Origin: a bacterium
GTDB lineage: Bacteria > Patescibacteriota > Minisyncoccia > Minisyncoccales > DG-74-3
Direction: 5' to 3'
DNA length: 64,000 bases
Assembly: GCA_030603245.1 (NCBI GenBank)
Contig: JAUVYE010000001.1
Coordinates: 1,418-65,417, forward strand
In this document: piece after piece, positions 25,071 to 41,863 of the stretch
How the letters are laid out: every line of letters begins with the position of its first letter
How positions within the stretch are numbered: position 1 is the stretch's first letter
Translations under genes and position numbers: made by a program
Notes under the pieces: generated by a model
The model's database searches: none
What the model saw: only the letters and a program-made list of their open reading frames with translations
What the model was told of the DNA's origin: nothing

Positions 25071-26102
25071 TTATTGAGCGAATGGGTTTCGAGCTCCGCT
25101 TACTCCAAAATGAACGTGACAACCAGTAGATAATCCTGAACCAGGCATACCCCATCCACCACCCATTAAAGCAATACGATCACCCTGAGAAACTTTCTGT
25201 CCAACATTAACCAAGCTTTTAGCAATATGTCCATACATTGTTACAACTCCATTAGGATGTAAAATTTTAATATAGTTCCCCGCTCCTCCAAAAGCCCATT
25301 TAGAAGTAGAAGTGGTTAATTTTACTCTTAAAACCTCGCCTCCTGCAGCAGCATAAATTAGCTCATTGCATTTACCGTGACTAAAGTCAATTGCATTATA
25401 CCAGTGAAGTCCTTGAGTAATTCTGCACGGCAAAGCAATCGGACAAATAAAATAACTGGAGGCTAAAGGAACATATTGGGACACATAAAGAACAGATGGC
25501 GCAGGCATTATTCCATTAGGAATAACAAGAATATCACCAATAAAAATATCTCCTTCTGAGGAAAGACTATTAAATGCTATAATTTCTGATGTTTTTCCTT
25601 TATAAGTTTGAGCAATGTTTGAAATTATGTCTCCACTCTTAACATGATAAATCACTCCTGAAATTGGAGGAATAATCAGTTTTTTACCAAGTCTCAAAAC
25701 TGTATTTTCATTTAAATCATTAGCCCAAAGCAAACTCTTTAAAGAAATCTTAAATCTTCGGGCAATTGTTGAAAGATTGTCGCCAGACTCAACAACATAT
25801 TCAATAATTCCTTGTCTAATTTCTGACAAATCTACAGAACCAACCAAAGCTCCTAAAACCTGAGGGGACAGAGTGGTTGGAGGCAGAGAGGCTTTTAAAC
25901 TGTTTCTTTGAATTAAAAGAAAATCTGGGGATTCTAAAGAAAACTTGTTTGATGGACCTAAAAACAAATCATGTTGGCTTTTAACCTCAAAATTCTCCAT
26001 TGTAATTGGAGAATCATTGCCCAAAAGAATCAAAGATATCAATCCTAATAAGATAATCGCACTTGTGAAAATCTTTTTTCGCGACATATTTGAACTAAAC
26101 AT
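25071..26102 (-). CDS. LysM-domain M23-family peptidoglycan endopeptidase
   Basis: Two LysM repeats (YVVESGDNLSTIARRF, YHVKSGDIISNIAQTY) and C-terminal M23 motifs including HVHFGVS. Confidence 0.8.
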   Translation of the reverse strand: MFSSNMSRKKIFTSAIILLGLISLILLGNDSPITMENFEVKSQHDLFLGPSNKFSLESPDFLLIQRNSLKASLPPTTLSPQVLGALVGSVDLSEIRQGIIEYVVESGDNLSTIARRFKISLKSLLWANDLNENTVLRLGKKLIIPPISGVIYHVKSGDIISNIAQTYKGKTSEIIAFNSLSSEGDIFIGDILVIPNGIMPAPSVLYVSQYVPLASSYFICPIALPCRITQGLHWYNAIDFSHGKCNELIYAAAGGEVLRVKLTTSTSKWAFGGAGNYIKILHPNGVVTMYGHIAKSLVNVGQKVSQGDRIALMGGGWGMPGSGLSTGCHVHFGVSGARNPFAQ

Positions 26103-26759: not shown

Positions 26760-27584
26760 ATGAATCTCATATCAAAAAGTGTAGTTAAACAAGTTTTAGA
26801 CAAATACCAAGTTAGACCTTTAAAAAGATTGGGGCAGAATTTTTTAGTTAATAAAAAAGCTCTCAATGATTTTATTAATGCTTGTGATTTGAGAAAAAGT
26901 GATGTTGTTTTGGAAATTGGCCCTGGACTTGGAACAATAACTCAAGAAATAGCCAAAAAAGTAAAAACAGTTATTGCAATAGAAAAAGACAAGAAAATGT
27001 GCGAAATCATGAAAGAAACATTATCTGATTTAAATAATATAGAAATAATTAATCAAGATGTGTTGAAAATTTTCAATTCCCAATTTTCAATTTCCAATTA
27101 TAAAGTAGTAGGAAATCTTCCTTTTTATATCACAGCGCCTGTTATTAGAAAATTCTTAGAAACCAAAAATCAACCAAAAGAAATGATTTTCATGATTCAA
27201 AAAGAAGTAGGGCAAAGAATTTGTGCAAAGCCGCCGAAAATGAGTCTTTTAGCTGTATCAGTTCAATTTTATGCTAAGCCAAAAATTGTTTCGTATCTTC
27301 CAAAAAATTCTTTTTGGCCTCAACCAAAAGTAAACTCAACTATTATTAAAATAATTCCTCAAAAACAAACTATTGTTAATGCAAAATTATTTTTTGAGGT
27401 TGTAAAAGCAGGATTCGCTCATCCCAGAAAACAATTAAGAAACAATCTTTCAAAACGATTAAAAATGAACAAAGAAAAAACTGAACAATGGCTTTTGAGA
27501 AACAATATTCAGCCCAATCAAAGAGCAGAAACTTTAAAAGTTCAAGATTGGATAAATCTCACAAAAACAATTAAAATGAATTAA
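26760..27584 (+). CDS. rsmA: 16S rRNA (adenine1518/1519-N6)-dimethyltransferase
   Basis: KsgA motifs LGQNFLVN and the SAM-binding VLEIGPGLGTIT. Confidence 0.9.
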   Translation: MNLISKSVVKQVLDKYQVRPLKRLGQNFLVNKKALNDFINACDLRKSDVVLEIGPGLGTITQEIAKKVKTVIAIEKDKKMCEIMKETLSDLNNIEIINQDVLKIFNSQFSISNYKVVGNLPFYITAPVIRKFLETKNQPKEMIFMIQKEVGQRICAKPPKMSLLAVSVQFYAKPKIVSYLPKNSFWPQPKVNSTIIKIIPQKQTIVNAKLFFEVVKAGFAHPRKQLRNNLSKRLKMNKEKTEQWLLRNNIQPNQRAETLKVQDWINLTKTIKMN

Positions 27585-30226
27585 TGTCAAAAAAATCTTT
27601 TTTAAAATTTCTGTTTTTTTTGTTCTTAGTCCTCAATTTTTTAAGCTTTGGGGAATTTGTTTTAGCTTGCGAGGAAGGAGAAACTCAAGATTGCGAAACC
27701 TGCGGAGTTCAAACCTGTGATGATTGTTATGAGAAAGAAATTGATTTCGGCATAGAAATAATAATAATGACTGTTTGTGATTGGGGAAACTGTGACCCTG
27801 ATAGTCAAACTCAAGACTGTGACATTTGTGGTGTTCAAGAATGCCAGTGTGAGGGCAACTCTTGTTGGTGGGACGATTGTGATGAAACATCAAAGCCAAG
27901 GACAAAAAGAACAAGCAATTGGACTGAATACCGCTGCCAGGAAGATGGATGTGGTCAAGAATATATCCAAAAAAGAAAATGTGAAGAAACTTGTACTAGA
28001 ACTTGTTGGTGTATAGGCGGAGGGGAATGGGAATGTTCAAGCTACTCGGATTGTGATACGGATTGCGACAGCCCAGAGCCTGTAGAAGAATGTGACTTAG
28101 ATTGGCAGCTTTGTTATGGAAGCAATGAATGGAGTAGATCTGCTCGTAGTTGTAATTGTGCAGGAACATGTTTAGAAACACCAAAAAATCCAAGATACTA
28201 TAATAACCCGAACTATCCAACTGATCCTTATGAACCAGAAGAATCAGAAGATGCTAATAATATTTTTTTGCCAGTTAAATTAGATTGGGACAATGTTAAA
28301 GCATGGAAAAATGATTGGGAAGAAAATGGAGAATTAAAAGAATGTTCAGAAGATTGTTTTCAATCATATTTGATTGAAATAAGCAATACAGCTTCTGGTA
28401 ATTTCTCAAAAGCTTTGACTCAAGATTCTGAATATAATCCAACACAAGACCAAGGAGCTTGTTTCTTAAAATCGGGAATAACTCATAATTTGGACGTAAG
28501 CGCTTGTTGTAATACAAACGGTACTAATTGCAGTTCTAAAAGCAACTGGAGTTTTGATACTAAATCTGCTCCAGAACCCATTTTGCCGGCTGATTTTGAT
28601 TGGAAAGAAGAAGAAATTAAATCTGGAGTTGAAATCCCAGTATTCCTTGATTGGTGCGATGTTAATAATGCCAAATCTTTTAGAATAAAAATTCATTATA
28701 TTAAAGATGGTCAAGAACTATGCCATCCCTGGCTTGTGTCAGGACAAAGCTGTGACTCTGAGATAATTACAACAGAAAACAGGCCTCCCCCATATTATGA
28801 TCCCACTAAAGATATTCTATATTCTGATTTTCAAGATAATGAGGGATTTTTTACTAAAGATACAGAATACAGGTGGGAATTAGCAACTTGTTTTAATGAA
28901 AATGGAACAAATTGTAGTGATTTTGGTCAAAAATGGGGATTTGATACTACTTTGGTTTCATTACCCTATCTTCAATTAGAGTCTCCGCCCAATGACCCTA
29001 ATGGTAAACAAGCAGTAGGTTTTCCAGTCATTTTAGAATGGAAACATGAACCAGGAATGAATTCTTTTGTTTATGATGTTTATAAAGAAAATCCAGGAGA
29101 ACTTACTGGCAATCTTAATCTTTCCCAAAAAGTTTTTGATTATCCAACGCTTTCTTTAAATACTTTTTATACTTGGAGAGTTAAGCCTTGTTGGGATTAT
29201 GAAGGATTAGATTGCGAAGATTGGCCAGCAGGCCAAGAATGGGTTTTTAAAACCACTGGAGCTGCACCAAATTTAATTTATCCAGAAAATAATGATTCTA
29301 ATGTTCCAATTCCAATAAAATTAGAGTGGGAAGGTATGTCAGGCGCTAAATCATATAAATATTGGGTATATTCTAGTGGAGAGTTAATTGCAAACAACAT
29401 TGTTGAAGACAGTTCTGTTTTAATTAAATACGATCCTGTTTCAAAAGAACCCAAGCAAGAAACTAATTATTCCTGGCAAATTGCAACCTGTGCTGATGAA
29501 AAGGGGGAAATTTGTGGCCTTCCTACAAGTCTGTGGAAATTTACAACCTTTAAACTTTCTCCTCCATCAAACTTATTACCAGAAAATAATGAAACAGTTT
29601 TTACCTATCAAATGCCTAAAAGCTTTTCTTGGGATTCAGATGCAAAATATTTTAGATTTACTTTAGATTATATTCAAAAAGCAGAACAAGAGGTTGGGAA
29701 TTGTGCTCTTGAAAGACAAAAAAAAATCACTGATAATAATCTTTATTCTCTTTCTTTAAGTTGCTTGGGAGAATACCAATGGCAAGTTCAAGCTTGTTTA
29801 GATGAAAACTGCGATCAAGAAGGAACCGCAAGCTCTGTTCAGAATTTCATCTTAGATCAAGCTACTCCTCCCACTCAATTTGGTTTAGTTCCTTGTGGCA
29901 GAAATTCAGACAATCCAAACACTCCTTGGAATGAAAGAGACAGTTGTCAATTTAAGCATCTTTTTATTCTTTTTAAAAATATTATTGATTTTCTTTTATG
30001 GAGAGTAACTTTGATTATTTTGCTTTTACTAGTCATAGCTACAGCAATAATATTTTACTTCTCAATAGGCGCCCCTGCTCTTATAATTGACATCAGAGGT
30101 GTTTGGAGAGCAGCTGGAAAGGGTTATGCAATTATTTTTATGTCTTGGATAATTATTAATCTTGTTTTAAATATTTTAGGATATCAAATTGGAATTTTTG
30201 GCCAGTGGTGGCAAATTAATTTCTAA
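27584..30226 (+). CDS. Secreted 880-aa Cys-rich repeat protein (putative adhesin/tip module) fused to a C-terminal VirB2-like pilin domain
   Basis: Signal peptide, then an N-terminal CxxC-rich region with duplicated TQDC(E/D)(T/I)CGVQxC. About 5 tandem ~100-aa modules follow, each ending W-x-[VI]-x-[AP]-C-x3-G-x2-C...W-x-F-x-T (FN3-like by pattern). The last ~115 aa are GLVPCGRNSDNPNTPWNERDSCQFKHLFILFKNI plus two TM helices, a paralogue of the 19103-19561 protein. Confidence 0.5.
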   Translation: MSKKSFLKFLFFLFLVLNFLSFGEFVLACEEGETQDCETCGVQTCDDCYEKEIDFGIEIIIMTVCDWGNCDPDSQTQDCDICGVQECQCEGNSCWWDDCDETSKPRTKRTSNWTEYRCQEDGCGQEYIQKRKCEETCTRTCWCIGGGEWECSSYSDCDTDCDSPEPVEECDLDWQLCYGSNEWSRSARSCNCAGTCLETPKNPRYYNNPNYPTDPYEPEESEDANNIFLPVKLDWDNVKAWKNDWEENGELKECSEDCFQSYLIEISNTASGNFSKALTQDSEYNPTQDQGACFLKSGITHNLDVSACCNTNGTNCSSKSNWSFDTKSAPEPILPADFDWKEEEIKSGVEIPVFLDWCDVNNAKSFRIKIHYIKDGQELCHPWLVSGQSCDSEIITTENRPPPYYDPTKDILYSDFQDNEGFFTKDTEYRWELATCFNENGTNCSDFGQKWGFDTTLVSLPYLQLESPPNDPNGKQAVGFPVILEWKHEPGMNSFVYDVYKENPGELTGNLNLSQKVFDYPTLSLNTFYTWRVKPCWDYEGLDCEDWPAGQEWVFKTTGAAPNLIYPENNDSNVPIPIKLEWEGMSGAKSYKYWVYSSGELIANNIVEDSSVLIKYDPVSKEPKQETNYSWQIATCADEKGEICGLPTSLWKFTTFKLSPPSNLLPENNETVFTYQMPKSFSWDSDAKYFRFTLDYIQKAEQEVGNCALERQKKITDNNLYSLSLSCLGEYQWQVQACLDENCDQEGTASSVQNFILDQATPPTQFGLVPCGRNSDNPNTPWNERDSCQFKHLFILFKNIIDFLLWRVTLIILLLLVIATAIIFYFSIGAPALIIDIRGVWRAAGKGYAIIFMSWIIINLVLNILGYQIGIFGQWWQINF

Positions 30227-30230
30227 AACA

Positions 30231-30911
30231 ATGAGTAAAGTAATAAAAATCCTTGTCGTTTTAGTAATTGTTCTTTTGCTTATTATTGTTTTGGGCAATT
30301 ATTTTTTACAACAACAACTAAAACAAGTAGGAGGAGTAGATTTTTCAGAAATAATATCCCAAATTGAAGGATTGTCATCTGAGCAAATTTTAAAATCTCA
30401 AGCAGAAAAAGAGAGTAGTAAAAAATTCATTAGTCCAGATAAAAAACTAAAAATAGAGTATTCTTTGAGGTGGATAGAAACACCGAGCGAAAGTTTGGAA
30501 AGAATCGTTCCGAATGAACAAATTCAAAAATACAACTTAACCAATTTGCTTTTAGCTCAACGATTCGAAATTAGTGGAGAATTTGCTCAATTAATTATTG
30601 ACCAGGCATTTTTTGACATCCAAAAGTCTTTTGAGCAAATTATTGATGAAATGCAGAAAGCTAATCTTGAACAGGGATGGAATATGGAAGTTATTGAATC
30701 AAAAACTGAAAACAATGAAATTATTTTTGAAGCAAGGTATGAAAAAAGCAAAAGCCATAGTGTTTATTCCAAAGAAAAGATAATATTTCTTGAACCAGAA
30801 GAAAACAATAAAAAAGCTTATTTAATTAGCTTTATTACTCTTAATAAAGATTGGTTAAAATTTAAAGAAGAGGCAAACAAAATCTTTGAATCTGTTGAAA
30901 TAAGTCAATAA
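30231..30911 (+). CDS. Hypothetical N-terminally membrane-anchored protein
   Basis: Single N-terminal TM (ILVVLVIVLLLIIVLG) followed by a soluble domain. The listed ORF start at 30189 overlaps the upstream gene, so the ATG at 30231 is preferred. Confidence 0.35.
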   Translation: MSKVIKILVVLVIVLLLIIVLGNYFLQQQLKQVGGVDFSEIISQIEGLSSEQILKSQAEKESSKKFISPDKKLKIEYSLRWIETPSESLERIVPNEQIQKYNLTNLLLAQRFEISGEFAQLIIDQAFFDIQKSFEQIIDEMQKANLEQGWNMEVIESKTENNEIIFEARYEKSKSHSVYSKEKIIFLEPEENNKKAYLISFITLNKDWLKFKEEANKIFESVEISQ

Positions 30912-30972
30912 ATTGCTTTATTCTTGACAAATATAAAAAATAAGGTAAAAAGAGAGTAGAAAGTGTTAAAAA

Positions 30973-31707
30973 TTGAATAAAGGAAAGCAAGATAAAACAT
31001 TTGGCAATTTCAACAAATCCACGATGATTACAGCTATTGTTATAACAATTATCGCAATAGGCAGTATTGGTTACTACACCATATTCTACAAACCAAGCCC
31101 ATCAGGACCACCCACCATTCCAGCAACCTCACCAGCCAACATTGGTAAACAAACGGATCCTACTACAGAAAGCACTGAAACAACCTCTGAGCTAATAAAT
31201 ACAACCTCTCCCGAGCCTGAGATATCTAATATTACAGATACTTCTACTGTTTCTGAAGATGAACTAAATGCAACTCAACCCGAAATACCAGAACCTGATT
31301 CTGCAATCATCACAATGAACGTTTCTGATCTCCATGATCTCTATATAGATGCTTATTTCACCTACGACAGAAGAGAAGCGAAAGACAAGATAGAAAATCT
31401 AACTGGTAAGGTCATTAGAGTAAGAGGGGTTTTCAGGATGTCGGCAAGAAAAAAAGCAGAAAACAATGAAACCTATGAAATAGTAATCCTGTTTGGAACG
31501 AATAATGAAAGTAATCCCAAAGACATCTTTATCTACTTACCTTTTACCGAGGAGGTCCTCCAAGAAGTAGCTGCTATAAAATATCCAGATGTAGTTGTTG
31601 TCCAGGGAGAATTCTATCCAGGACCACCTGAACCTTTGCCATTTTATCCTCCTAAGATTGGATACAGTATAGTTGCACGTTTGAAGAATTGCCAATTAGT
31701 ACCTTAA
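30973..31707 (+). CDS. Membrane-anchored Thr/Ser/Pro-rich surface protein with C-terminal OB-fold (tRNA_anti-like/BOF-type) domain
   Basis: TM anchor, a low-complexity T/S/P/E linker, then a domain with LTGKVIRVRGVF...YEIVILFG typical of OB-fold BOF/tRNA_anti-like modules. Start is TTG at 30973 or ATG at 31022. Confidence 0.4.
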   Translation: MNKGKQDKTFGNFNKSTMITAIVITIIAIGSIGYYTIFYKPSPSGPPTIPATSPANIGKQTDPTTESTETTSELINTTSPEPEISNITDTSTVSEDELNATQPEIPEPDSAIITMNVSDLHDLYIDAYFTYDRREAKDKIENLTGKVIRVRGVFRMSARKKAENNETYEIVILFGTNNESNPKDIFIYLPFTEEVLQEVAAIKYPDVVVVQGEFYPGPPEPLPFYPPKIGYSIVARLKNCQLVP

Positions 31708-31794
31708 GGACTTTACAGTCCTGTTTTTTTATTTCTAAAAAAAAGTGATATAATAATTATAGAATGAGATTTTTTGTTATGATATAATATTAAA

Positions 31795-32736
31795 ATGAAA
31801 AAGCTTTACATAAGTAAAAAACTCTTTTTCTTTTTAACACTATTGGTGGTTTTGGGTATTGCTTCTAATGCTTTGGCTTTAGAGTTAAATTGGCCTGTTT
31901 CCCCAGGAAAAACTGAACTGACTGAAAAAAGCAATATTTCAGAAATGGTTAAATACTTCTATGAGTGGGGAATATCTTTGGGTGGAATAGCAGTATTTTT
32001 TTCTTTAATAATGGCTGGTTTTAAATATTTAACTTCAGTGGGAAACGAAAACAAAATGAGAGAGGCTAGAGACAGAATTAACTCTTCTCTTTTGGGACTT
32101 TTGCTTCTTTTATCTTCCTTTCTTATTCTTAATACTATTAACCCTGAACTAACTACTTTAAGAATGCCTGATGATATAAAATCTGCTTCTCAAAATCTGA
32201 TACCTATAGACGTAGGTAAACCAGATACTTCTGATCCTTGTAAAAAAGTAATTGTCTATAGTGAGACTAATTTTCAAGGTAATTCATTTGAGATTCTACC
32301 GGGACTAACGTCTGGGGACCTATCTGCTACTGCTAAAATAGGAGGGGAAGCTCTCTCAATTGAGATTTTTGGCTTTTGTAAGGCAGAACTATATTCATCA
32401 AAAAACTGTTGGTGGAAAGCAGACCTAATGACCACAATTTACACTAGCTTGCCTGATATTGCTTCTGTATACCTAAACGATCCTGTTGTTTGTGTTAGAA
32501 ATTTAGCAGGAATCACTTCTTCGCCATGTGATGAGAACTGTTCTAAGTGTAGTAAAGAAATAGATTGTATAACTAGTTCTTCTAATTGTATTTGGCAAAA
32601 CTACCTTTGTATTGAATCAACATGCGATACAAATTGTAGTGAATGTACTACGTTCGCGGACTGTATTTCGAGTTGGGCTGAGTCTGGTTGTGTCTGGACC
32701 CCTTATGAAACATGTGAGCCAGAACTGTTTGAGTAA
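31795..32736 (+). CDS. VirB2/TrbC-like pilin-family protein with C-terminal Cys-rich duplicated module
   Basis: Signal peptide, then a two-TM hairpin (GGIAVFFSLIMAGFKYLTSVGNENKMREARDRINSSLLGLLLLLSSFLIL) matching the TM1-AG-loop-TM2 pattern of the other two pilin-like domains. C-terminal ~190 aa contain repeated C(D)xNCS(K/E)C...DCI(T/S)S...C(I/V)W units. Confidence 0.45.
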   Translation: MKKLYISKKLFFFLTLLVVLGIASNALALELNWPVSPGKTELTEKSNISEMVKYFYEWGISLGGIAVFFSLIMAGFKYLTSVGNENKMREARDRINSSLLGLLLLLSSFLILNTINPELTTLRMPDDIKSASQNLIPIDVGKPDTSDPCKKVIVYSETNFQGNSFEILPGLTSGDLSATAKIGGEALSIEIFGFCKAELYSSKNCWWKADLMTTIYTSLPDIASVYLNDPVVCVRNLAGITSSPCDENCSKCSKEIDCITSSSNCIWQNYLCIESTCDTNCSECTTFADCISSWAESGCVWTPYETCEPELFE

Positions 32737-32763
32737 TAAAACAACAAAAAAATAAATTAAAAA

Positions 32764-35700
32764 ATGCCCGAAAAATTCAAAAGTTTTTTCTCTAAAATAA
32801 TAACAGATAAAAGATTAAAAATTGCTCTTTTCTCTTTTATTGTTTTATTCAGTATTTTTATTCCTTTAAAACGCGCTGATGCTATTTGGGGAATCGGAGA
32901 TATCGGGCTTTTTGATTTGGCTCAAACGCAATTAGATGCTTTAGATTTTGTAGATAGCGTAATTTTGAGATTAGTTATCTTTATTTTTGTCCTTATTGTA
33001 GAATCAGAGATTTTTATTTTTACCGCAGCCAATCTTTTACAATGGGCAATGAATCTACCAATAAATATTGGGATCGGTGCCACAAAAAACCTTCTTGTTG
33101 CCTCGGGCTGGCAATTTACTCTTGGTCTAACTAATCTCTTCTTCATTTTAGCCCTCGTGATTATTGCCTTAGCTCATATTTTGGGATTAAGTACTTTTGA
33201 AATGAAAAAAGCTCTGCCAAAGCTAATTATAATTGCTCTTTTGGTGAATTTTAGTTTAGTTTTTATTGGAATGTTTGTAGATATTGTCAATATCTTTCAG
33301 AATGCTATTTTAGATGCGCTCGGAAAAGATTTGGTTACCTTAGCTATCCAGCCACTTATAACTAGCGCTAAAAGCGTTGCTGCCTGGTTTGTTCTTATTC
33401 CTACCACCTATTTGATTACTGCTCTAATTCCTTTTGGCAATGTTATTGCAGCTGTAGCGGTTGGAAGCACAATCCTTACTGATATTGTATCTGGCGGTAT
33501 CTTGCTTAAGGGTCTGTTTTTAATAATTATAAATTTGCTTATTGGAACCATCTTCTTATTCTATTTCGTCTTTTTCTTAATGAGAATAGCTATGATTTGG
33601 ATTTTGGCTATTTTTGCTCCTTTGGCTTTTTTCAGCTATATTCTGCCTCAAACTCAAGGTGTTTGGAGAGAATGGCTCAAAACTCTCTCAGAATGGTTAA
33701 CCTTAGGAATAGTTGCAATTTTCCTAACAGGTTTAGGATTAAAATTATTTGCAACAACCGGAGACAATGCTATTCTTGACTGGGGAGGAGATATAAATAC
33801 AGGAAGAGGTTCTTTACCAGCTTTTATTTATAATTATCTGTTTTTGCTTGTTTATATGGGAATAGCTGCTTATTACAGTATAAAATATACTCCCCAAATG
33901 GCTAATACCTTATTAGATTATGGAAAAGGTTTTGCAGGTGGTGTTAGAAAAATAGCAACTACAAGAACAATGAAAAGAGATGTTTGGGGGCCAGCAGCAG
34001 AACAATTGGCTGATACGGAAAAGTGGGGTCAACGATTAATAGGAAGGGCTAAAGAAGCAGAAATAGAGGGGAAAATAGGAAGGGCAATGTTTATGAGATG
34101 GGCTGGGAGAGGTGCTGGGGGATTAGGCAAAGCGGTTGGTACAGCCACCAAACCGTTTAGACCAGGTCTGATTGAATATGCGGCTCAACAAAGAAGAACT
34201 GCCAAACCAAAGGGCTGGGATCAAATGTCTGTTGCTGATAAGTCCAATTATATTAATGCTCTAACACAAGATAAAGAAAAAATGGTTTTAGCAAGTCAAA
34301 TGGCGACCGAAGGCACTTTTGCTCATGCTGGAAATGAATTCCAAGAGCAAATACTTGGAATAGCAAAAGGTTTTTCAAAAGATGATAGAAATAAGGCGTT
34401 GTATGGAAAAGAAATTGGAGATATTTATGATGTAATTCCAGACGGTGTTACTCTAGAGTCTGAACTCGATCTTAAAGCAACAAAACAAGACAAAGAAGAA
34501 CTCAGAAAAAAAATAGAAGGTAAGGCAAAAGAAATAACCGCCAATGCTGGTTTACCAGAAGATCAATATACGCAGAATTTGGATTTAGCTGCTGCCGTTC
34601 TAAGAATAAAAGCAATGAAAACAGCTGATTTGGTTAAGATGAAAAAAGCTTCTCTTACCTCCATGGCTGGCAGATTAGCTTCTCATGAAATGACCAGTCA
34701 ACAAATACAAAGAATTTATAATACCTTTGGCAGAGATACAATAGATGATATATTCAAGGGCGATGGCGGGCTTAATGATATCTTTGAAAACAAAAAACAA
34801 AAAGAAGGACAAAAACTCCTTGATCAAGCGTATCGCCGAAATCCTGCACTTGTTCACTTTTTTGCTAATACTCCTGCAGGTAGAGCGATGAACTGGAGCG
34901 GACTTAAATATATGGATAGGAACGAAAACAATAAAATAGATTTTGATAAATTTAAAGAAAGATTGTCAGAAGAAGAAAGAGAAAGAGAAGAAGAAAAAGA
35001 AAAAGAAGCAGCAGTAGTGCCTAAACCAGTTTCTAGAGTAAAGCAATTTGAAAAAGATATATTGTCAAAATTAGCAGAACAAAAGGAAATCAAGGCACAA
35101 ATTTCAGAACATAAAAAGGAATTGAGAGGGGTAAAAACAGCTGCAACAAGAATAGACGTAGAAAATAATATTAAAGAAAAAGAAAAAACCCTTAAAATTA
35201 ATCAGGCAGAAATTAAAAAACTTCAAAAGAGTTATTCAGAAGAATGGAAAGCAGAAAAAATAGCACTCACCGAGGCAGCAGCTGAAACTGAAGAACCAAA
35301 AGCAAAACTTTTGAGCGAGGTTGAAAAACTAAAAGCATTAGATAAAGCAGCTGAAAAAATAGAGTCTGATAACGCTCTCTTTATATCTAAGTTAGAAGAT
35401 AGGGAGAAGGTTTCTAAATTAACAGAAAAAGAACAAGAAGCATATAAACAATACAAAGAAGCCTATAATAGCGCGTTTACCGAAAGAAAAGAAATAAAGA
35501 GCAAACTTGATGCATCAGAAAAGTATGCTAATAAAATATCTCTAAGACTAAAGAATATTCGAGGCATAGAAAACAATTTAGAAATAACTAAGAAAGAAGC
35601 TTTGACCTCTGGAAATTTAGAAAAAGTGAAAAATGCAGAGCTTGCCATGGAACATCTGAAACAAGAAAAAACTTCTATCGAAAAGATTTTAGCAACATCA

Positions 35701-36555
35701 ACCCCAGAAGAAATGCTTAATAAAGAAAAAGGAGTTGATATTATGCAGGAGAGATTAAAAGAATTTAATCAAAATCCATTAGTAGTACAAGCCAAAAGAG
35801 ATGTACGAAAGCTGAAACAAAAAATAAGGTTAACTCAAGATAAAACAGAAAAAACTAGACTCCGAAAAGATTTATCTAGTCATAAAGAAAGATATTCTTC
35901 AGTATTCGAAATTGCTCCAAAACTAGAAAAAGCTTACAGAGAACAAAAAAGAGGATTGCCAAAGACAAAAGGTGCACTAGAAAAATTACAAACCCAAAAA
36001 TTAACAGCAATTAGTAATCTGAATTTGAAAAAATCAAAAGATTTAGAATTAAAAATAGAAAATCAGGAAAAATTAGCAGATAGTTCACGCTACAGATTGT
36101 CTGTATTGTTACCAGGCGAGATTGACAGATTGATGGACGTCGTACAAGAAGAAAAAGTAAAAGGCACCGTTCCGTTTATTCCGCGACCGTCAAAAACTCC
36201 TCCGTCGACAACAACACCAACCACACCATCAGATCCACAGTCTCCGCCACCCCTATCCTCACCGCCACCACCAGACGAAATTCCTCCTGAGGATTTAGAA
36301 AAAATCAGGAAAGAATTCAAAACAAAAACAGAAAGAGTACTGAAAGACATCTCCAGCTTCGAAGAACTGAATAAGGCGCTAGATGATCTTGGAGAGATAC
36401 AGGGCAGCAAAAAACTTTATTCGACAAAAGAACTTAAAGAAATAATTAAGGATATTAGAATTGGAAAGAAAACTCTCTCTCATGTAACAAGAGAGGGAGG
36501 GCTAAGAAGAGTGGTAAGAAAATTGATTAGCTTAGAAAAAAAGAATACACGTTAA
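32764..36555 (+). CDS. Giant VirB6/TrbL-like polytopic membrane protein with ~800-aa coiled-coil and Pro-rich C-terminal extension
   Basis: The first ~390 aa carry at least 8 TM helices; the VirB6-like call rests on this topology and the neighbouring T4SS genes. Long K/E-rich heptad coiled coil follows. Pro/Thr/Ser-rich segment TPPSTTTPTTPSDPQSPPPLSSPPPPDEIPPE at about nt 36180-36300. Confidence 0.45.
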   Translation: MPEKFKSFFSKIITDKRLKIALFSFIVLFSIFIPLKRADAIWGIGDIGLFDLAQTQLDALDFVDSVILRLVIFIFVLIVESEIFIFTAANLLQWAMNLPINIGIGATKNLLVASGWQFTLGLTNLFFILALVIIALAHILGLSTFEMKKALPKLIIIALLVNFSLVFIGMFVDIVNIFQNAILDALGKDLVTLAIQPLITSAKSVAAWFVLIPTTYLITALIPFGNVIAAVAVGSTILTDIVSGGILLKGLFLIIINLLIGTIFLFYFVFFLMRIAMIWILAIFAPLAFFSYILPQTQGVWREWLKTLSEWLTLGIVAIFLTGLGLKLFATTGDNAILDWGGDINTGRGSLPAFIYNYLFLLVYMGIAAYYSIKYTPQMANTLLDYGKGFAGGVRKIATTRTMKRDVWGPAAEQLADTEKWGQRLIGRAKEAEIEGKIGRAMFMRWAGRGAGGLGKAVGTATKPFRPGLIEYAAQQRRTAKPKGWDQMSVADKSNYINALTQDKEKMVLASQMATEGTFAHAGNEFQEQILGIAKGFSKDDRNKALYGKEIGDIYDVIPDGVTLESELDLKATKQDKEELRKKIEGKAKEITANAGLPEDQYTQNLDLAAAVLRIKAMKTADLVKMKKASLTSMAGRLASHEMTSQQIQRIYNTFGRDTIDDIFKGDGGLNDIFENKKQKEGQKLLDQAYRRNPALVHFFANTPAGRAMNWSGLKYMDRNENNKIDFDKFKERLSEEEREREEEKEKEAAVVPKPVSRVKQFEKDILSKLAEQKEIKAQISEHKKELRGVKTAATRIDVENNIKEKEKTLKINQAEIKKLQKSYSEEWKAEKIALTEAAAETEEPKAKLLSEVEKLKALDKAAEKIESDNALFISKLEDREKVSKLTEKEQEAYKQYKEAYNSAFTERKEIKSKLDASEKYANKISLRLKNIRGIENNLEITKKEALTSGNLEKVKNAELAMEHLKQEKTSIEKILATSTPEEMLNKEKGVDIMQERLKEFNQNPLVVQAKRDVRKLKQKIRLTQDKTEKTRLRKDLSSHKERYSSVFEIAPKLEKAYREQKRGLPKTKGALEKLQTQKLTAISNLNLKKSKDLELKIENQEKLADSSRYRLSVLLPGEIDRLMDVVQEEKVKGTVPFIPRPSKTPPSTTTPTTPSDPQSPPPLSSPPPPDEIPPEDLEKIRKEFKTKTERVLKDISSFEELNKALDDLGEIQGSKKLYSTKELKEIIKDIRIGKKTLSHVTREGGLRRVVRKLISLEKKNTR

Positions 36556-36607
36556 GTACTTAAAATAATAAAAAGTGCGGTAAAATGCTTTTGTAGCTTT
36601 TTACCGC

Positions 36608-37048
36608 TTAGGGTGAGGGAGGTGGCAGGAAAGGACGAACGTTCAGTAACCAGGCTGGCATTGGATGTGGACTAGTGAGTTCTGGTATGATGCCACGATC
36701 TACATCAACCTTATTGGCCAAGTTCTGAAGTGCAGTACAATCCTGAAGAGTCTTTTCAAACTCCTGATAAGTATCTGCCATTTCTTGCAGTAAAGTATCA
36801 AGTCGAGTTTTTAGTAAATCTTCTGCTGTCTGGGCTTGCCGGAAAGCCCAAGGAACATGTCTTTTAACTTGTTCTTTGAACTTGTCCTTCTCTGGAGCCA
36901 CAAAGAGCGCTATAACCTGATTTGTTGGACCATCCAAGATTTCGTCAAGATCAGAAGGATTCTCCATTACTGTTCTTGCAATCTCTACTAGTTTGGCCCT
37001 AAATTTTCCTACTCCGATACTCTTATCATAATTCACCATTCTTTTCAC
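36608..37048 (-). CDS. Hypothetical protein, reverse-oriented, in a compositionally distinct (about 50% GC) island
   Basis: The only minus-strand gene inside a plus-strand locus. The local sequence is visibly GC-rich relative to the ~30% GC flanks. No recognisable motifs. Confidence 0.35.
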   Translation of the reverse strand: MKRMVNYDKSIGVGKFRAKLVEIARTVMENPSDLDEILDGPTNQVIALFVAPEKDKFKEQVKRHVPWAFRQAQTAEDLLKTRLDTLLQEMADTYQEFEKTLQDCTALQNLANKVDVDRGIIPELTSPHPMPAWLLNVRPFLPPPSP

Positions 37049-37086
37049 CTATTTAATTATACATATTATATCAAACAAGATAAAAT

Positions 37087-37533
37087 TTGTCAATAGTTAT
37101 GACTAACAAATATACATCAGAACAATTTTGGAAATTATATGACAAACTTCCTCAGGAATTAAAGGATGCTCTTTTTGCTGAGGAAACGGGTACTAATATT
37201 TATGATACTTGCAAAAGAAATGATTGTTTAGAATACCACAGTGAAATTATTGAATATGTTGGTCAAGTTTTAATTGGGGTCTTGGCTCCCGAGGATTTTA
37301 TGGCTGTACTAAAGAAAAACCTAAAATTAACTAAAGAAACTGCCAAAAAAGTTGTCCAAGAAATTAATCGTTTTATTTTTTATCCGGTTAGGCCTTTATT
37401 AGAAAAACTGTATAAAATGAAAATGACACCTTCTTCTTTGGAAAAACCTGGTTTAGTTACTAAAACTCCTGCTCCAAAAAAAGAAGAGTCAGCTCCTCCC
37501 AGAAAAGACACTTATAGAGAACCTATTAAATAA
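37087..37533 (+). CDS. Hypothetical protein (T4SS-locus associated)
   Basis: 148-aa soluble ORF in operon position ahead of the PrgI-like gene. Confidence 0.35.
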   Translation: MSIVMTNKYTSEQFWKLYDKLPQELKDALFAEETGTNIYDTCKRNDCLEYHSEIIEYVGQVLIGVLAPEDFMAVLKKNLKLTKETAKKVVQEINRFIFYPVRPLLEKLYKMKMTPSSLEKPGLVTKTPAPKKEESAPPRKDTYREPIK

Positions 37534-37537
37534 ATAT

Positions 37538-37945
37538 ATGAGATTTACTGTTCCTCAATTTATTGAGCGCGAAGCAAAAATAGTTGGTCCATTAACTTTT
37601 AGACAGTTTATTTTTATTGCAATTGCTGGCGCTATTTGCTTTTTTATTTATAGTATTGCTCCTTTTTATGTGTTTGTAATAGCCTGTGTTATTTTTGGTG
37701 GGAGTTCCTTGGCTTTGGCATTTTTAAAAGTACAAGGAAGATCCTTGCCCGTTGTTTTATCAAATCTTCTAAGGTTTAATTTTGCTCCCAAAATGTATCT
37801 TTGGAAAAAAAGCCAAGTCCCAATAAAAATTTTGAAAAAAGAAACAGTGGTGCAATCAGAAAAAGAACAAGAAACCCCTTTAAAAATAGCTGAAAAGAGT
37901 CAATTAAAAAAAATAAGGACTGAAATTGAAACAAGACCAGAATAA
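37538..37945 (+). CDS. PrgI-family / VirB3-like small membrane protein
   Basis: N-terminus MRFTVPQFIEREAKIVGPLTFRQFIFIAIAG matches the PrgI-family consensus (VPkdl...ki.g.LTfRQfiyl) followed by a TM hairpin. Confidence 0.55.
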   Translation: MRFTVPQFIEREAKIVGPLTFRQFIFIAIAGAICFFIYSIAPFYVFVIACVIFGGSSLALAFLKVQGRSLPVVLSNLLRFNFAPKMYLWKKSQVPIKILKKETVVQSEKEQETPLKIAEKSQLKKIRTEIETRPE

Positions 37946-38579
37946 TATGGTTAAAGCATCAACTCAACAATTTTTAGAAGTTAAAGAAATTAAACAAGGA
38001 GTCGTTGTTTTAAAAAACAAAGCTTTGAGAGGAGTATTAATGGTTTCCTCTTTAAACTTTGCCTTGAAATCTAAAGATGAACAAAATGCTACTATTTACC
38101 AATTCCAAAGCTTTTTGAATTCCTTAGACTTTCCTCTTCAAACATTAGTTCAATCTCGAAAACTCAATATTACTGGATATTTAGATAAATTAAAGGAATT
38201 AGAAAAAGAGCAAAAAAACGAACTCTTAAAAACTCAAACAGCGGAATACAGAAATTTTATTAAAGAATTGATTGTTGGGAGCTCTATTATGTCTAAAAAT
38301 TTCTTTGTTATAGTTCCTTTTGTTTCAATTAAAATTCCTGGCATTACTTCAAAGGGCTCTGGAAAAACACTTGCTAAATCAATCGATGATCAATTTCAAA
38401 GAGCAAAATCTCAACTTTGGCAAAGAATGGAATTTGTATCTATGGGATTAAGAAGGTGTGGATTAAAGTGTATTCCCTTAAATACCACTGAGTTAATTGA
38501 GCTTTTCTGGTCATTACATCATCCAGAAGAAGCTGAAATAGGATATTATCCTGAAATACCTCCTGAATTAATAAAATGA
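37926..38579 (+). CDS. Hypothetical T4SS-associated protein
   Basis: 217 aa. Overlaps the upstream gene by 20 nt and the downstream VirB4 by 4 nt (translational coupling). No motifs. Confidence 0.35.
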   Translation: MKQDQNNMVKASTQQFLEVKEIKQGVVVLKNKALRGVLMVSSLNFALKSKDEQNATIYQFQSFLNSLDFPLQTLVQSRKLNITGYLDKLKELEKEQKNELLKTQTAEYRNFIKELIVGSSIMSKNFFVIVPFVSIKIPGITSKGSGKTLAKSIDDQFQRAKSQLWQRMEFVSMGLRRCGLKCIPLNTTELIELFWSLHHPEEAEIGYYPEIPPELIK

Positions 38580-40378
38580 AAATACCTTTTTTAAAAAAGA
38601 AAAGAACATATCAATTGGTTAAGGAAGATACCAGTAAGATTTTTGAAAAAAAGGCAATGGAGCTTAACGACATCATTGCCCCTTCTTCAATTACTATTTC
38701 TTCTGACAACTTAAAGCTTGGCAAAATGTTTGCTAAATCTTTTTTCATTTTTTCCTATCCCAGATATTTAAGTACTGGCTGGTTTTCTCCAATCATTAAC
38801 CTTGACGATCCAATGGATATTTCCATTTTTGTTCACCCGATTGAAACAGGAACGATTTTAAAACAATTAAGAAGAAGGGTGACTGAAGTTCAGGCCGAGA
38901 TTTCAGAAAGACAGGAAAAGGGATTAATCAGAGATCCTGTTTTACAAACAGCTTATCAGGATTTAGAAACTTTAAGAGACCGGCTCCAGACAGCTCAAGA
39001 AAGAATGTTTAAATTAGGCATCTATTTAACTACTTATGGCAAATCAGAACAAGAATTAAAAAACATTGAGAACACGCTAAGGTCAATGTTAGAATCTCGC
39101 TTAATATACATTAAACCTGCTCTTTATCAACAAAGAGAAGGTTTTAATTCTTGTGCTCCTTATGGATTAGATCAACTTCAAGTTCATACTTCAATGAACA
39201 CAGGACCTCTTTCTTCTGTTTTTCCTTTTGCTTCATTTGATTTAAGTTCAAACGAAGGAATCTTATATGGAATAAACAGACATAACAATTCTTTAATTCT
39301 TTTTGATAGATTTAGTTTAGAAAATGCGAATAGTATTTTATTTGCGAAGAGTGGAAGTGGAAAGTCATATGCAGTCAAATTAGAAGTTCTACGCTCTTTA
39401 ATGATAGGGGTTGATGTAATTATCCTTGATCCTGAAAATGAATATGAATTCTTATCTGATGCTGTGGGTGGTTCTTTCTTTAATATTTCTTTAGGATCTG
39501 CAAATCACATTAATCCTTTTGATTTGCCCACTCCAAGAAAAGATGAAAAACCATCTGATATTTTAAGATCTAATATTATTAATTTAGTTGGTTTAATACG
39601 AGTTATGTTAGGAGGGTTAACTCCTGAAGAAGATTCTATTATGGACCAAGCTCTTACTGAAACCTATGCTGCTAAAGACATTACTATTAAAAGCGATCCA
39701 AGTACTTGGAAAGAGAATGTTCCCTTAATGGAAGATTTAGAAGCAATTCTCAACACTATGGAAGGAACTGATTCTTTAGTAAGAAGATTAAGAAAATTTA
39801 CCAAAGGCACATTCAGTGAATTCTTTAATCAAAAAACTAATATTTCAACTGACAATCCTTTAATTGTATTTGGAATCAGAGATATGGAAGACGAATTAAG
39901 GCCAATCGCAATGTTTATTGTTATGCGTTATATCTGGAATAAAATCAGGTCTGAGCTTAAAAAAAGAATTTTGGTCGTAGATGAAGCCTGGTGGATAATG
40001 CAATCAGAAGATGGAGCTTCCTTTTTATATGGTATGGCTAAAAGAGCCAGAAAATATTGGCTAGGGGTAACCACTATTACCCAGGATGTGGGAGATTTTA
40101 TGAAATCTGAATATGGAAAACCTATTATTACTAACTCTTCTTTACAAATTTTATTAAAACAATCTCCAGCCACAATTGATTTGGTAAAGAAAACCTTTAA
40201 TCTGACTGAAGAAGAAAAATATTTATTATTAGAAGCTGAAGTGGGGGAAGGTATATTTTTTGCAGGACAAAAACATGTAGCAATTAAAGTAGTTGCTTCG
40301 TATACTGAAGATCAAATTATTACCACTGACCCAGAACAGGTATTGAAAATTAAAAAAGCAAAAGAAGAATCAATTTAA
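38576..40378 (+). CDS. VirB4/TrbE/CagE-family type IV secretion ATPase (short, Gram-positive/archaeal-type form)
   Basis: N-terminal VirB4 region (IAPSSITISSDNLKLGKMF...YPRYLSTGW), Walker A FAKSGSGKSYAVK, Walker B with the VirB4-typical DEAW (ILVVDEAWWIM), and downstream GVTTITQD. Confidence 0.8.
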   Translation: MKIPFLKKKRTYQLVKEDTSKIFEKKAMELNDIIAPSSITISSDNLKLGKMFAKSFFIFSYPRYLSTGWFSPIINLDDPMDISIFVHPIETGTILKQLRRRVTEVQAEISERQEKGLIRDPVLQTAYQDLETLRDRLQTAQERMFKLGIYLTTYGKSEQELKNIENTLRSMLESRLIYIKPALYQQREGFNSCAPYGLDQLQVHTSMNTGPLSSVFPFASFDLSSNEGILYGINRHNNSLILFDRFSLENANSILFAKSGSGKSYAVKLEVLRSLMIGVDVIILDPENEYEFLSDAVGGSFFNISLGSANHINPFDLPTPRKDEKPSDILRSNIINLVGLIRVMLGGLTPEEDSIMDQALTETYAAKDITIKSDPSTWKENVPLMEDLEAILNTMEGTDSLVRRLRKFTKGTFSEFFNQKTNISTDNPLIVFGIRDMEDELRPIAMFIVMRYIWNKIRSELKKRILVVDEAWWIMQSEDGASFLYGMAKRARKYWLGVTTITQDVGDFMKSEYGKPIITNSSLQILLKQSPATIDLVKKTFNLTEEEKYLLLEAEVGEGIFFAGQKHVAIKVVASYTEDQIITTDPEQVLKIKKAKEESI

Positions 40379-40833
40379 GAAGGTTTAACAACCACCTTTC
40401 TTTCATCTCTTTCACCAATACTCTCTGTAATAACCCCACTTCTTTCAGCCAACTCCATATGAACAATTCTTCTTTCAAAAGCGCGCATTGGACTTAGCGC
40501 TTTTTCTTTTTTGGTCAAAACCACATCATCAGCAACAGAATTGGCTAATTCTTTCAAATACTCGGCTTTCTTTTTCTTGTAATCATTAATATCAACGTTA
40601 ACATAGAATAATTCTTCTGTTTTTTTTCTTAAAATAATTTTCAAAAGATGCTGAATGTCAGCCAAGGTTTGACCTCTTTCTCCAATCAAAATTTGAGGGT
40701 CTTCAGTTTTAACCTTAATCAAAAGAGTATTTTCTTCTTGGGTCGAAAAATCAAGACTAACGTCAAAAGTGGTTTTTTGAAAAAACTCTTTAGTAATTTT
40801 TCTTATTTTTTCCAAACCTTCTTTTGAAATCAT
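40375..40833 (-). CDS. jag: KhpB/Jag RNA-binding protein (KH + R3H)
   Basis: KH-like (ILIGERGQTLADIQHLL) and R3H-like C-terminal regions. Conserved position downstream of yidC. Confidence 0.7.
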   Translation of the reverse strand: MISKEGLEKIRKITKEFFQKTTFDVSLDFSTQEENTLLIKVKTEDPQILIGERGQTLADIQHLLKIILRKKTEELFYVNVDINDYKKKKAEYLKELANSVADDVVLTKKEKALSPMRAFERRIVHMELAERSGVITESIGERDERKVVVKPS

Positions 40834-41516
40834 GCTTTTCTAAAGATTAAATATTGTTGGCCGATTGAAAGAACAGTAGTTGTTATCCAGTATAAAGCAA
40901 CTGCAGACGGCATTCTAATAAGAATAAAAATTGTTAAAAAAGGAAACATAAAAATCATTTGATTAGAAACTGCGCTTGCTGCTTGCCCCGCTTTTTCTTT
41001 ATTGCTTTTCATTTGAATGAGTTGGGCAAAACCAGCTAATATTGCTAAAAAAAGACTTGGTTGAGAAAGATCTATTAAATTCAAAAAACTAAAGCTTATT
41101 ATTTCAGGTCTTGGAATAAAACTATAAAGATTACTTAACTCTTCTGATTGTAATCCTCTCCAAAATACACGATAAAGAGCAATTAAAAGCGGTAACTGAA
41201 TTAAAACAGGAATAAGACTATTAAGAGGATTAATCTTTTCTTTTTGGTAAAGCTCTAAGATTTCTTGCATTTGCTTTTCCTTATTGTCTTTGTGATTATT
41301 TTGAATCACTTTCACTTTTTCTTGAATTCCGGATAGAGCTTTTTGTGATTTTAAAGATTGAGCCATCAAAGGAGACAAAACTAATCTGATTAAAGCTGTT
41401 AAAACAATTACTGCTATTCCAAAATCGCGTCCTGGCAAAAATTGATATAAAAAAAATAAAGCATTAAACAATGGTTGATACAATATTTTGTTAAAAAATT
41501 CGGTTAAAAAATTCAT
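40830..41516 (-). CDS. yidC: Membrane protein insertase YidC (short form)
   Basis: Typical short YidC/Oxa1 core (LTALIRLVLSPL, 5 TM). rnpA-yidC synteny. Confidence 0.85.
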   Translation of the reverse strand: MNFLTEFFNKILYQPLFNALFFLYQFLPGRDFGIAVIVLTALIRLVLSPLMAQSLKSQKALSGIQEKVKVIQNNHKDNKEKQMQEILELYQKEKINPLNSLIPVLIQLPLLIALYRVFWRGLQSEELSNLYSFIPRPEIISFSFLNLIDLSQPSLFLAILAGFAQLIQMKSNKEKAGQAASAVSNQMIFMFPFLTIFILIRMPSAVALYWITTTVLSIGQQYLIFRKA

Positions 41517-41863
41517 TATTTATTATTAATTATTTTCGCTTTTTTAAAAAGCTTACTAATCATTTCTTTTATCTCTTTAAAATCTTTTAACTCTAATCCT
41601 GGACTTGCTATGATAATGACGTCTACTCCTTTTTGGATTTTTTTAAGATTCAAATAAACTATTTCTCTAAGTTTTCTTTTTATTTTATTTCTAGTAACAG
41701 CTTTTTTAGAAAACTTTTTAGATACTACAAAGGTAAAGCGCGATTCGTTTAAATCATTGGATAATATTTTTAAGATTAAAAGATCTTGTTTAAAAATCCT
41801 TCCTTTTTCAAATACTTTTTGAATATCTTTATTTTTTTTGAGTCGGTTAATCTTTGCTAACAT
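41516..41863 (-). CDS. rnpA: Ribonuclease P protein component
   Basis: 115-aa basic protein with the RnpA-like RNR-type motif (FTFVVSKKFSKKAVTRNKIKRKLRE). rpmH-rnpA synteny. Confidence 0.8.
   Translation of the reverse strand: MLAKINRLKKNKDIQKVFEKGRIFKQDLLILKILSNDLNESRFTFVVSKKFSKKAVTRNKIKRKLREIVYLNLKKIQKGVDVIIIASPGLELKDFKEIKEMISKLFKKAKIINNK

Follow-up and report, generated by a model that had tools for sequence, protein, structure and literature searches.

The stretch of DNA examined here, a 64-kb window of contig JAUVYE010000001.1 (assembly GCA_030603245.1, positions 1,418 to 65,417; hereafter the window), carries a cluster of genes for a type IV secretion system (T4SS) between ksgA and the dnaA region. 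As judged from sequence comparison, this locus is very probably a core chromosomal T4SS of the monoderm type, derived from the MPF_FATA group, which belongs to the Paceibacteria class (Parcubacteria) of the Patescibacteria. An original prediction, made from the sequence alone, had picked out six open reading frames (ORFs) as a T4SS-like locus; all six were found at the positions it gave, and its calls of a VirB4, a PrgI, a VirB6-like protein and a VirB2-like pilin are backed by matches to Pfam, NCBIfam or family profiles. The main result of the follow-up is negative but useful: the seemingly odd hybrid T4SS is a standard, phylum-wide system that has been published with the same gene set and in the same position, and it is not a discovery.

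A total of 452 ORFs of the window were searched, and all ORFs of at least 90 aa were read as translations, from which the housekeeping genes clpP, tig, nusA, pnp, ksgA, yidC, rnpA, dnaA and dnaN were recognised. Three of the products considered below (880, 1263 and 600 aa) are identical, residue for residue, to NCBI-sourced proteins in a public collection, where they occur on a contig of 91,291 bp. Synteny was examined in the best 80 of 356 confirmed VirB4 relatives from a genome collection (loci L001-L080; VirB4 identity 68-95%). Nearly all of these carry names of the Patescibacteria or Candidate Phyla Radiation (CPR) type, one being Ca. Humimicrobiaceae and several only 'bacterium'; the named sources of the closest relatives include Paceibacterota, Nealsonbacteria, Wildermuthbacteria, Staskawiczbacteria and Ca. 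Paceibacter normanii. The window proteins were mapped onto the 80 loci by tblastn, complemented by an iterative search for the pilin and 148-aa families, and proteins of the conjugative plasmid pCF10 (Enterococcus faecalis) were compared with all 452 ORFs using phmmer, a comparison of pairwise sensitivity only.

The ATPase of the machine is a 600-aa protein (38576-40378, plus strand) assigned by NCBIfam, Pfam and phmmer to the MPF_FATA/CD1110 type of VirB4. It matches NF045971 (VirB4-like, CD1110 family) over model positions 180-734 with E=1e-110 and 371 bits, above the cutoff of 325, and PF19044 (P-loop_TraG) with E=6.7e-25; PrgJ of pCF10 finds it with E=6.6e-40, and its sequence shows the Walker A motif GSGKS and the Walker B motif DEAW. 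Models of the FtsK/HerA type score far lower on the same protein than the VirB4 models, so that it is a true VirB4 and not a member of another P-loop ATPase family. The short VirB4 of the original description is accounted for, since the N-terminal region of a full-length VirB4 lies in an adjacent TrsD-like ORF (217 aa; 37926-38579, plus strand), which had been overlooked and whose 3' end overlaps the virB4 start (ATGA). The TrsD-like ORF matches NF045975 at positions 94-218 (E=5.5e-10), NF041427 TrsD (E=3.3e-5) and NF045971 at positions 2-119 (E=1.3e-4), the scores on NF041427 and NF045975 being below their curated whole-protein cutoffs. Judged by these matches, the TrsD-like ORF and the VirB4 ORF are together equivalent to a full-length VirB4, and the preservation of the split in 77 of the 80 relatives means that it is not an assembly error.

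Immediately upstream lies a PrgI/VirB3-like membrane protein of 135 aa with two hydrophobic helices (37538-37945, plus strand), which matches PF12666 with E=9.6e-9 and 36.1 bits (gathering score 27). The PrgI of pCF10, used as a query, gave a sole match (E=0.0025) to an unrelated ORF at 46776-46895 and not to the prgI of the window. The products of prgI, the TrsD-like ORF and virB4 are colinear on the 894-aa model NF045975 of the VirB4 of Mycoplasma integrative and conjugative elements (ICEs), at positions 27-125, 94-218 and 270-893 respectively, suggesting that a VirB3-VirB4 unit encoded as one fused protein in the Mycoplasma ICE lineage corresponds to three ORFs in the present locus.

The membrane channel would be provided by an extended VirB6/TrbL-like polytopic protein of 1263 aa (32764-36555, plus strand), with about nine hydrophobic segments in residues 16-369 followed by an 840-aa extension that is rich in Lys and Glu, contains no Cys, and leads through a Pro-rich stretch to a small C-terminal domain. 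The protein as a single query had no match in Pfam. Its first 500 residues, searched for homologues, recovered 107 proteins, several with PF04610 TrbL or PF19590; nine of 37 aligned family members match PF04610 (TrbL/VirB6), and the family profile, over its conserved membrane core, finds TrwI, the VirB6 of plasmid R388 (7o3v_F; E=1.1e-5), as its best PDB match. All the VirB6 homologues in 55 loci are extended (398-1446 aa, median 758), and the protein of the window lies in the upper tail. The extended VirB6 class (Alvarez-Martinez and Christie 2009, as cited in PMC12857230) likewise combines a polytopic core with a large hydrophilic domain in the C-proximal part; unlike that class, to which no sequence relation was found past the VirB6 core, the extension here is free of Cys and rich in Lys and Glu with a Pro-rich stretch. 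Only 13 Cys were counted in 23,405 residues of the VirB6 extensions across the loci. This near-absence, set against the Cys-rich modules of the pilins described below, hints that the extension may be cytoplasmic, and an arrangement with Cys-rich pilin modules outside and a Cys-free VirB6 extension inside would fit.

The cluster is flanked by housekeeping genes. On the left, ksgA/rsmA (16S rRNA dimethyladenosine transferase, recognised by eye; 26760-27584, plus strand) abuts the cluster, its stop codon overlapping the start of the first gene (TAATG). The right flank (40375-44879) consists of jag/khpB, yidC and rnpA on the minus strand and dnaA and dnaN on the plus strand, again read by eye, jag from its R3H and KH domains. 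The guanine-plus-cytosine (GC) content is about 32% across the whole window, and that of the locus equals that of its flanks. Among the 80 loci, tblastn found the TrsD-like ORF in 77, PrgI in 74, pilin-domain ORFs in 68 and VirB6 in 55, and, among the flanking genes, jag in 63, dnaA in 52 and ksgA in 39, the right-flank genes overall being found in 41-63. The recurring order reads LysM-M23 peptidase (minus strand), ksgA, optionally a pilin of the 880-aa type, a 226-aa protein and a further pilin, then virB6, the 148-aa gene, prgI, trsD and virB4, followed by optional additional pilins and by jag, yidC and rnpA (all three on the minus strand), dnaA and dnaN. Since the same gene order occurs in dozens of genomes, the co-localisation is not due to chance, and the genes are not scattered in the relatives. 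On this comparative evidence the locus is a core chromosomal system and not an ICE, because as many as 77 of the 80 Paceibacteria genomes share its order and position, their VirB4 proteins being 68-95% identical. Reading of the translations of at least 90 aa found no coupling protein, relaxase or integrase among the window ORFs; together with the pCF10 search, this extends to the whole 64 kb the earlier remark that neither relaxase nor coupling protein was in view.

These features are those of a system already described. It is treated in the survey of Quinonero-Coronel et al. (2025, PMC12102498) and in the study of Wang et al. (2023, PMC10633639). The former reports VirB4 in 2,417 of 3,035 Patescibacteria genomes, forming a clade of its own nested in MPF_FATA. 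TrsD is the commonest companion of virB4 there, with PrgI/VirB3, VirB6 and VirB2-like pilins, including members of PF18895 and often arranged in arrays near virB4; relaxases occur in only 103 of the 3,035 genomes, and type IV coupling protein (T4CP) genes are rarely near virB4. In the Paceibacteria and Microgenomatia, the cluster is situated beside dnaA, dnaN, rnpA, ksgA and rpmH (PMC12102498). The present locus agrees with that account in the MPF_FATA ancestry of its VirB4, a TrsD-like ORF next to virB4, PrgI/VirB3, VirB6, clustered pilins of the PF18895 type, a neighbourhood free of relaxase and T4CP genes, and a site by ksgA, rnpA, dnaA and dnaN. Wang et al. noted the same oddities, namely a Gram-positive-like core with pilins and with neither coupling protein nor relaxase, and found the cluster of the Saccharibacterium Ca. 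Southlakia epibionticum (SEML1_0006-0019), including its pilin genes, to be essential for epibiotic growth (PMC10633639); the essentiality of this T4SS is also reported in PMC12857230. A 2024 perspective calls the role "completely unknown" and raises effector delivery or uptake of DNA or nucleotides (PMC11665869), while a 2025 review lists the Patescibacteria T4SSs as notable newcomers and speculates on the pilus as a conduit (PMC12857230). The gene set is thus neither unusual nor minimal, as had been proposed, its architecture and position being the published standard of the phylum (PMC12102498, PMC10633639, PMC12857230), and the earlier suggestion of a role in host attachment or uptake rather than conjugation repeats speculation in the existing literature. 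Three differences were noted from the published Patescibacteria T4SS: large surface modules are joined to the pilin domains, both in the window and in the majority of related loci; the 148-aa gene upstream of prgI is not named in the available text; and the VirB6, at 1263 aa, is long for its family.

Comparison with other known systems places the locus more precisely. As in the Gram-positive MPF_FATA systems (pCF10; CTn2/CD1110 of C. difficile), the VirB4 is of the CD1110/PrgJ type and the outer-membrane parts VirB7, VirB9 and VirB10 are absent. As in the prgF-pcfG region of pCF10, VirB6 is encoded upstream of prgI-virB4, whereas a minus-strand ORF, the 148-aa gene and the TrsD-like ORF here intervene between the virB6 and virB4 genes. 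Unlike pCF10, the window has no counterpart detectable by the phmmer search of PcfC (T4CP), PcfG (relaxase), the PrgK-type hydrolase, PrgL (VirB8-like), PrgH and others. VirB2-like pilins are present, which Gram-positive systems generally lack, and a relation of the two-helix PrgF of pCF10 (75 aa) to the CPR pilins found no support, the hhalign probability being below 3%. In contrast to the Gram-positive conjugative systems, the present one is chromosomal, core and non-mobile, with its VirB4 split into TrsD-like and ATPase ORFs. Likeness to the Mycoplasma ICE system extends from the colinearity described above to a 313-aa protein that matches the Mbov_0395 pilin-like model, the VirB4 model concerned being that of Mbov_0397, with all matches to Mycoplasma ICE models scoring below the curated cutoffs; that system differs in being a mobile ICE with the three regions fused in one protein.

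Three proteins of the window carry a VirB2-like pilin domain. The shortest, a protein of 182 aa (19013-19561, plus strand) about 8 kb upstream of the main cluster, was not among the genes originally named; it has a signal or anchor segment, an LVPCGR motif and a two-helix hydrophobic hairpin, matches PF18895 (T4SS_pilin) with E=1.7e-8 and 34.8 bits (gathering score 26.6), and is a candidate for the major pilin. The first gene of the cluster (27584-30226, plus strand) encodes a putative modular pilin/adhesin of 880 aa with 48 Cys, comprising a signal peptide, a Cys-rich head (residues ~29-205), five Fn3-like modules (~222-762) and a C-terminal VirB2-like hairpin (~765-880). This C-terminus has no match in Pfam; it is 32% identical to the short pilin (E=3e-17, BLASTP), and the structure predicted by AlphaFold2 for it, the putative pilin domain of the original prediction, is a helical hairpin. 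The third, a putative modular pilin of 313 aa (31795-32736, plus strand), has a signal peptide, an N-terminal VirB2-like hairpin (~45-115) and a Cys-rich C-terminal extension with 16 Cys, and matches PF18895 (under the gathering score) and NF045849 (Mbov_0395 pilin-like), both with E=1.5e-4. Hydrophobic hairpins are seen in the 880- and 313-aa proteins, neither of which reaches the PF18895 gathering score, and both are tied by BLASTP, a custom hidden Markov model (HMM) and iterative search to members that pass it. For the custom HMM, the last 125 residues from each of 67 homologues of the 880-aa protein were used; it places the three pilin-domain ORFs first among the 452, with the short pilin second-best (E=8.5e-26) and the 313-aa protein third-best. 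The extension of the 313-aa protein (residues ~120-313) contains a beta/gamma-crystallin-like Greek-key motif and, beyond it, two Cys-rich repeats with the pattern C..NCS.C....DCI.S; its sole PDB matches were to beta-crystallin B2 with E=0.12, a weak lead.

Fusion of pilin domains to large modules is widespread in the related loci. Pilin-domain ORFs resembling the 313-aa protein, found by tblastn in the 68 loci counted above, rose to 73 of the 80 with the iterative hairpin search, which identified 137 pilin-domain ORFs; 110 of these have a long N- or C-terminal extension. The hairpin is N-terminal, with a long extension of up to 1,671 aa behind it, in 95 ORFs, C-terminal after a long extension, as in the 880-aa protein, in 15, and located elsewhere in five, the remaining 22 being short (<170 aa). 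On these layouts, modular pilins are the rule in Paceibacteria T4SS loci, and no description of such fusions was found in the literature searched. The published survey handles pilins as small proteins and reports adhesins as undetected (PMC12102498). Downstream of virB4 in many relatives, pilin-domain ORFs of 1,000-1,671 aa have the hairpin at the extreme N-terminus (such as L075 12099-17114 and L079 12109-16242), and in some homologues of the 880-aa protein (P0138, P0145) a Peptidase_C39_2 domain precedes the Ig/Fn3-like modules and the pilin domain. Both termini of the hairpin face the exterior of the pilus in F and VirB2 pilins; a fusion at either the N- or the C-terminus could therefore be displayed on the surface. 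Bulky subunits may polymerise, or they may only decorate the tip or the base of the pilus. PilB and PilC of Streptococcus sanguinis are bimodular type IV pilins in which a pilin module carries an adhesin domain displayed on the filament; the concept is the same, and since the pilin superfamily and the machine differ, the parallel would be one of analogy only.

Directly upstream of prgI, a conserved small soluble protein of 148 aa is encoded (37087-37533, plus strand), likewise overlooked before. Its family was found in 48 of the 80 loci by tblastn and in 62 by iterative search, and 57 ORFs in 56 loci terminate in its near-invariant C-terminal motif D-x-Y-R-E-P-I-E, in which Y143 and E145 are invariant and D141 and R144 nearly so. 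No hydrophobic segment was seen in the protein, and the family had no match in Pfam or the PDB; a relationship to PrgE of pCF10 was considered and rejected, the comparison giving no match. A library of 1.8 billion proteins yielded 2,084 cluster representatives at E<=1e-3. By these searches, the 148-aa proteins form a large unannotated family tied to the T4SS locus, and the position of the gene directly upstream of prgI, together with its very wide distribution, makes it an obvious candidate for a missing component.

The remaining genes in and around the cluster are less constant. Two membrane-anchored proteins, each with one N-terminal hydrophobic segment, are encoded between the 880- and 313-aa pilins: one of 226 aa with a PsbP/Mog1/DcrB-like alpha/beta domain (30231-30911, plus strand) and a lineage-specific one of 244 aa with a Thr/Pro/Ser-rich linker and a C-terminal domain (30973-31707, plus strand). 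The former was considered as a VirB8/PrgL/TcpC protein, which would have an N-terminal transmembrane segment and an NTF2-like fold, and was rejected on account of its PsbP fold. The latter had no match in Pfam, NCBIfam or the PDB, and among the 80 loci L001, the nearest genome, alone had a homologue of it. Between virB6 and the 148-aa gene is a gap occupied by a strain-variable minus-strand ORF of 146 aa (36608-37048), not noticed earlier, for which none of the 80 loci has a homologue; the same slot of the nearest genome (7935-8297) holds an unrelated minus-strand ORF of 120 aa, so that the slot looks like a variable insertion site, and the 146-aa ORF is probably not part of the T4SS machine. 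It is preceded by a consensus sigma-70-like promoter (TTGACA-17-TATAAT, 12/12, extended TG; 37093-37065). The totals of the promoter and terminator scans of the window were not above those of shuffled sequences; only individual sites are noted here. About 1.5 kb upstream of the cluster, a minus-strand gene (25071-26102) encodes two LysM domains and an M23 peptidase (PF01476, E=5.5e-23; PF01551 Peptidase_M23, E=7.5e-17), and such a gene lies upstream of ksgA in 33 of the 80 loci. Its domains make it a candidate cell-wall hydrolase that might act as a VirB1 analogue. The earlier statement that equivalents of VirB1 and VirB8-B11 are absent stands as regards VirB8-10, no VirB8-like protein and no homologue of VirB7-10 having been found in the window, but has to be amended for VirB1 in view of this overlooked candidate.

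How such an apparatus might assemble and contact a host can be outlined, and the outline as a whole has, in our estimate, roughly an even chance of being right. The ATPase complex of VirB3, TrsD and VirB4 would dock on the VirB6 channel. VirB4 has a role in pilin extraction in other T4SSs, and by analogy it would here pull pilin hairpins out of the membrane, which would then polymerise into a short pilus or conduit with the short pilin as the bulk subunit and the modular pilins as minor or tip subunits. The extensions of the latter (the Cys-rich head on its Fn3 stalk and the Cys-rich C-terminal module) would face outward and bind the host cell, their adhesin modules being stabilised by disulfides, while the LysM-M23 peptidase would open the cell wall for the fibre or conduit. 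The apparatus would thereby serve host contact and exchange of macromolecules, and not plasmid conjugation. A bolder extension, which we regard as doubtful, would hold that the T4SS pilins of Paceibacteria mostly constitute an undescribed modular VirB2-type class with fast-evolving Cys-rich adhesin modules at either end (including Fn3 stalks, peptidase heads and extensions to ~1,600 aa), that the T4SS fibre is a host-recognition organelle setting the host range, and that the 148-aa protein is a cytoplasmic adaptor or VirB4-docking substrate replacing the coupling protein.

Several points weigh against interpreting the locus as a complete, pilus-forming T4SS of this kind. To our knowledge, a T4SS pilus has not been shown by experiment or structure in any Patescibacterium. 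No VirB8-like protein was found in the window, the one candidate tested, of 226 aa, having a PsbP fold. A T4CP or relaxase may be encoded elsewhere in the genome, outside the 64-kb window; VirD4 homologues occur in most of the genomes surveyed, usually far from virB4 (PMC12102498). The pilin assignment of the 880- and 313-aa proteins is transitive, because both score under the PF18895 gathering score, and helical packing may not tolerate a pilin that carries a 750-aa domain, in which case the hairpin would only be a membrane anchor. This last point can be developed into an explanation of its own, in which the pilin domains are two-helix anchors of surface adhesins that never polymerise and the T4SS core is merely co-located. 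Two of the three pilin-domain proteins being under the Pfam threshold would agree with it, as would the commonness of extensions of up to 1,671 aa, which look hard to pack in a filament. We nevertheless consider it unlikely, given that 73 of 80 loci have pilin-domain genes within the virB4 cluster or adjoining it, that a short pilin passing the Pfam threshold is also present, and that pilin genes of the T4SS cluster are essential in Southlakia (PMC10633639, PMC12857230).

Other explanations concern what the machine does or where it came from. Export of proteins that are injected or released into a host bacterium for nutrients, with no canonical coupling protein involved, on the pattern of the Bordetella Ptl and Brucella VirB systems, is possible though less than probable: protein-secreting T4SSs without a T4CP exist (PMC12102498, PMC12857230), protein export was suggested by Wang et al. 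(PMC10633639), and the soluble 148-aa protein, whose C-terminal motif is invariant, might serve as substrate, chaperone or adaptor. However, no effector, secretion signal or chaperone was identified, and any role of the 148-aa protein, which has no Pfam or PDB match, is pure inference. Distinctly unlikely, in our estimate, is a ComB-type machine importing host or environmental DNA as a source of nucleotides together with ComEA and the nearby competence genes. Such uptake has been raised in the literature with H. pylori ComB as precedent (PMC11665869), Patescibacteria are described as lacking nucleotide synthesis (PMC10633639), no relaxase or T4CP is present in the window, and a protein combining ComEA (helix-hairpin-helix) and lamin-tail domains and a PilB/GspE-type ATPase are encoded 9-11 kb downstream. 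Yet ComB systems use VirB7-10 homologues, none of which was seen among the window ORFs; housekeeping genes (dnaA, dnaN, a gene for a penicillin-binding-protein-like product, and tyrS; by eye) separate the ComEA and PilB genes from the cluster; and a comEC deletion mutant of Southlakia loses competence yet stays viable, whereas the T4SS is essential (PMC12857230), which argues that competence and the T4SS are not functionally coupled in that organism. The membership of VirB4 in the CD1110 family, typical of Firmicutes ICEs, might instead suggest an ordinary conjugative element (ICE or plasmid remnant) with its relaxase, T4CP and integrase located beyond the window. This is essentially excluded by the identical ksgA/rnpA-dnaA position in dozens of species-level genomes at 68-95% VirB4 identity, the GC content shared with the flanks, the overlap of the ksgA stop with the first cluster gene, and the scarcity of relaxases across the phylum (the 103 of 3,035 genomes cited above; PMC12102498); no integrase, repeats or tRNA boundary was noticed on reading, nor a relaxase or T4CP in the 64 kb. 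The housekeeping and replication genes of the flanks, with no integrase or relaxase seen in the window, likewise answer the earlier concern that an ICE might surround the locus.

Some features of the window outside the T4SS locus deserve mention. Both the orientation of the genes and the cumulative GC skew (minimum -1.51) change over near 19-20 kb, some 22 kb away from dnaA and not at dnaA itself; 16 DnaA boxes were counted in the window against 16.6 expected, with no enrichment anywhere. An archaeal-type ether-lipid gene cluster occurs in this bacterium at 5463-14848, with all its Pfam matches above threshold. It includes a PcrB/GGGP synthase (6113-6895), a polyprenyl synthase (6892-7983), a UbiA prenyltransferase (8078-8872), a geranylgeranyl reductase (8873-10006), a CarS-like CDP-archaeol synthase (12995-13552) and a CDP-alcohol phosphatidyltransferase (14240-14848). 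Interspersed with them are DegV-like genes, recognised by eye only, and two PlsY acyltransferase paralogues (5463-6116, 10003-10638). The ComEA-like helix-hairpin-helix protein fused to a lamin-tail domain (49473-50417, minus strand) has a C-terminal anchor, and the GspE/PilB-type ATPase (434 aa; 50582-51886, minus strand) carries a tetracysteine motif and stands alone, no other pilus-assembly genes being adjacent. At 53388-59305, a signalling cluster was recognised by eye. It encodes a histidine kinase, two single-domain response regulators, a FIST-like and a periplasmic-binding-like protein, and two membrane proteins whose coiled-coil tails resemble each other.

The T4SS of the Patescibacteria is of biological importance, being essential in the one genetically tractable CPR bacterium. 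The novelty that remains in the present locus lies in the modular-pilin architecture and the 148-aa family, and not in the T4SS itself. The modular pilin-domain proteins are concrete candidates for the host-recognition adhesins of these organisms, whereas the published survey reported none (PMC12102498).

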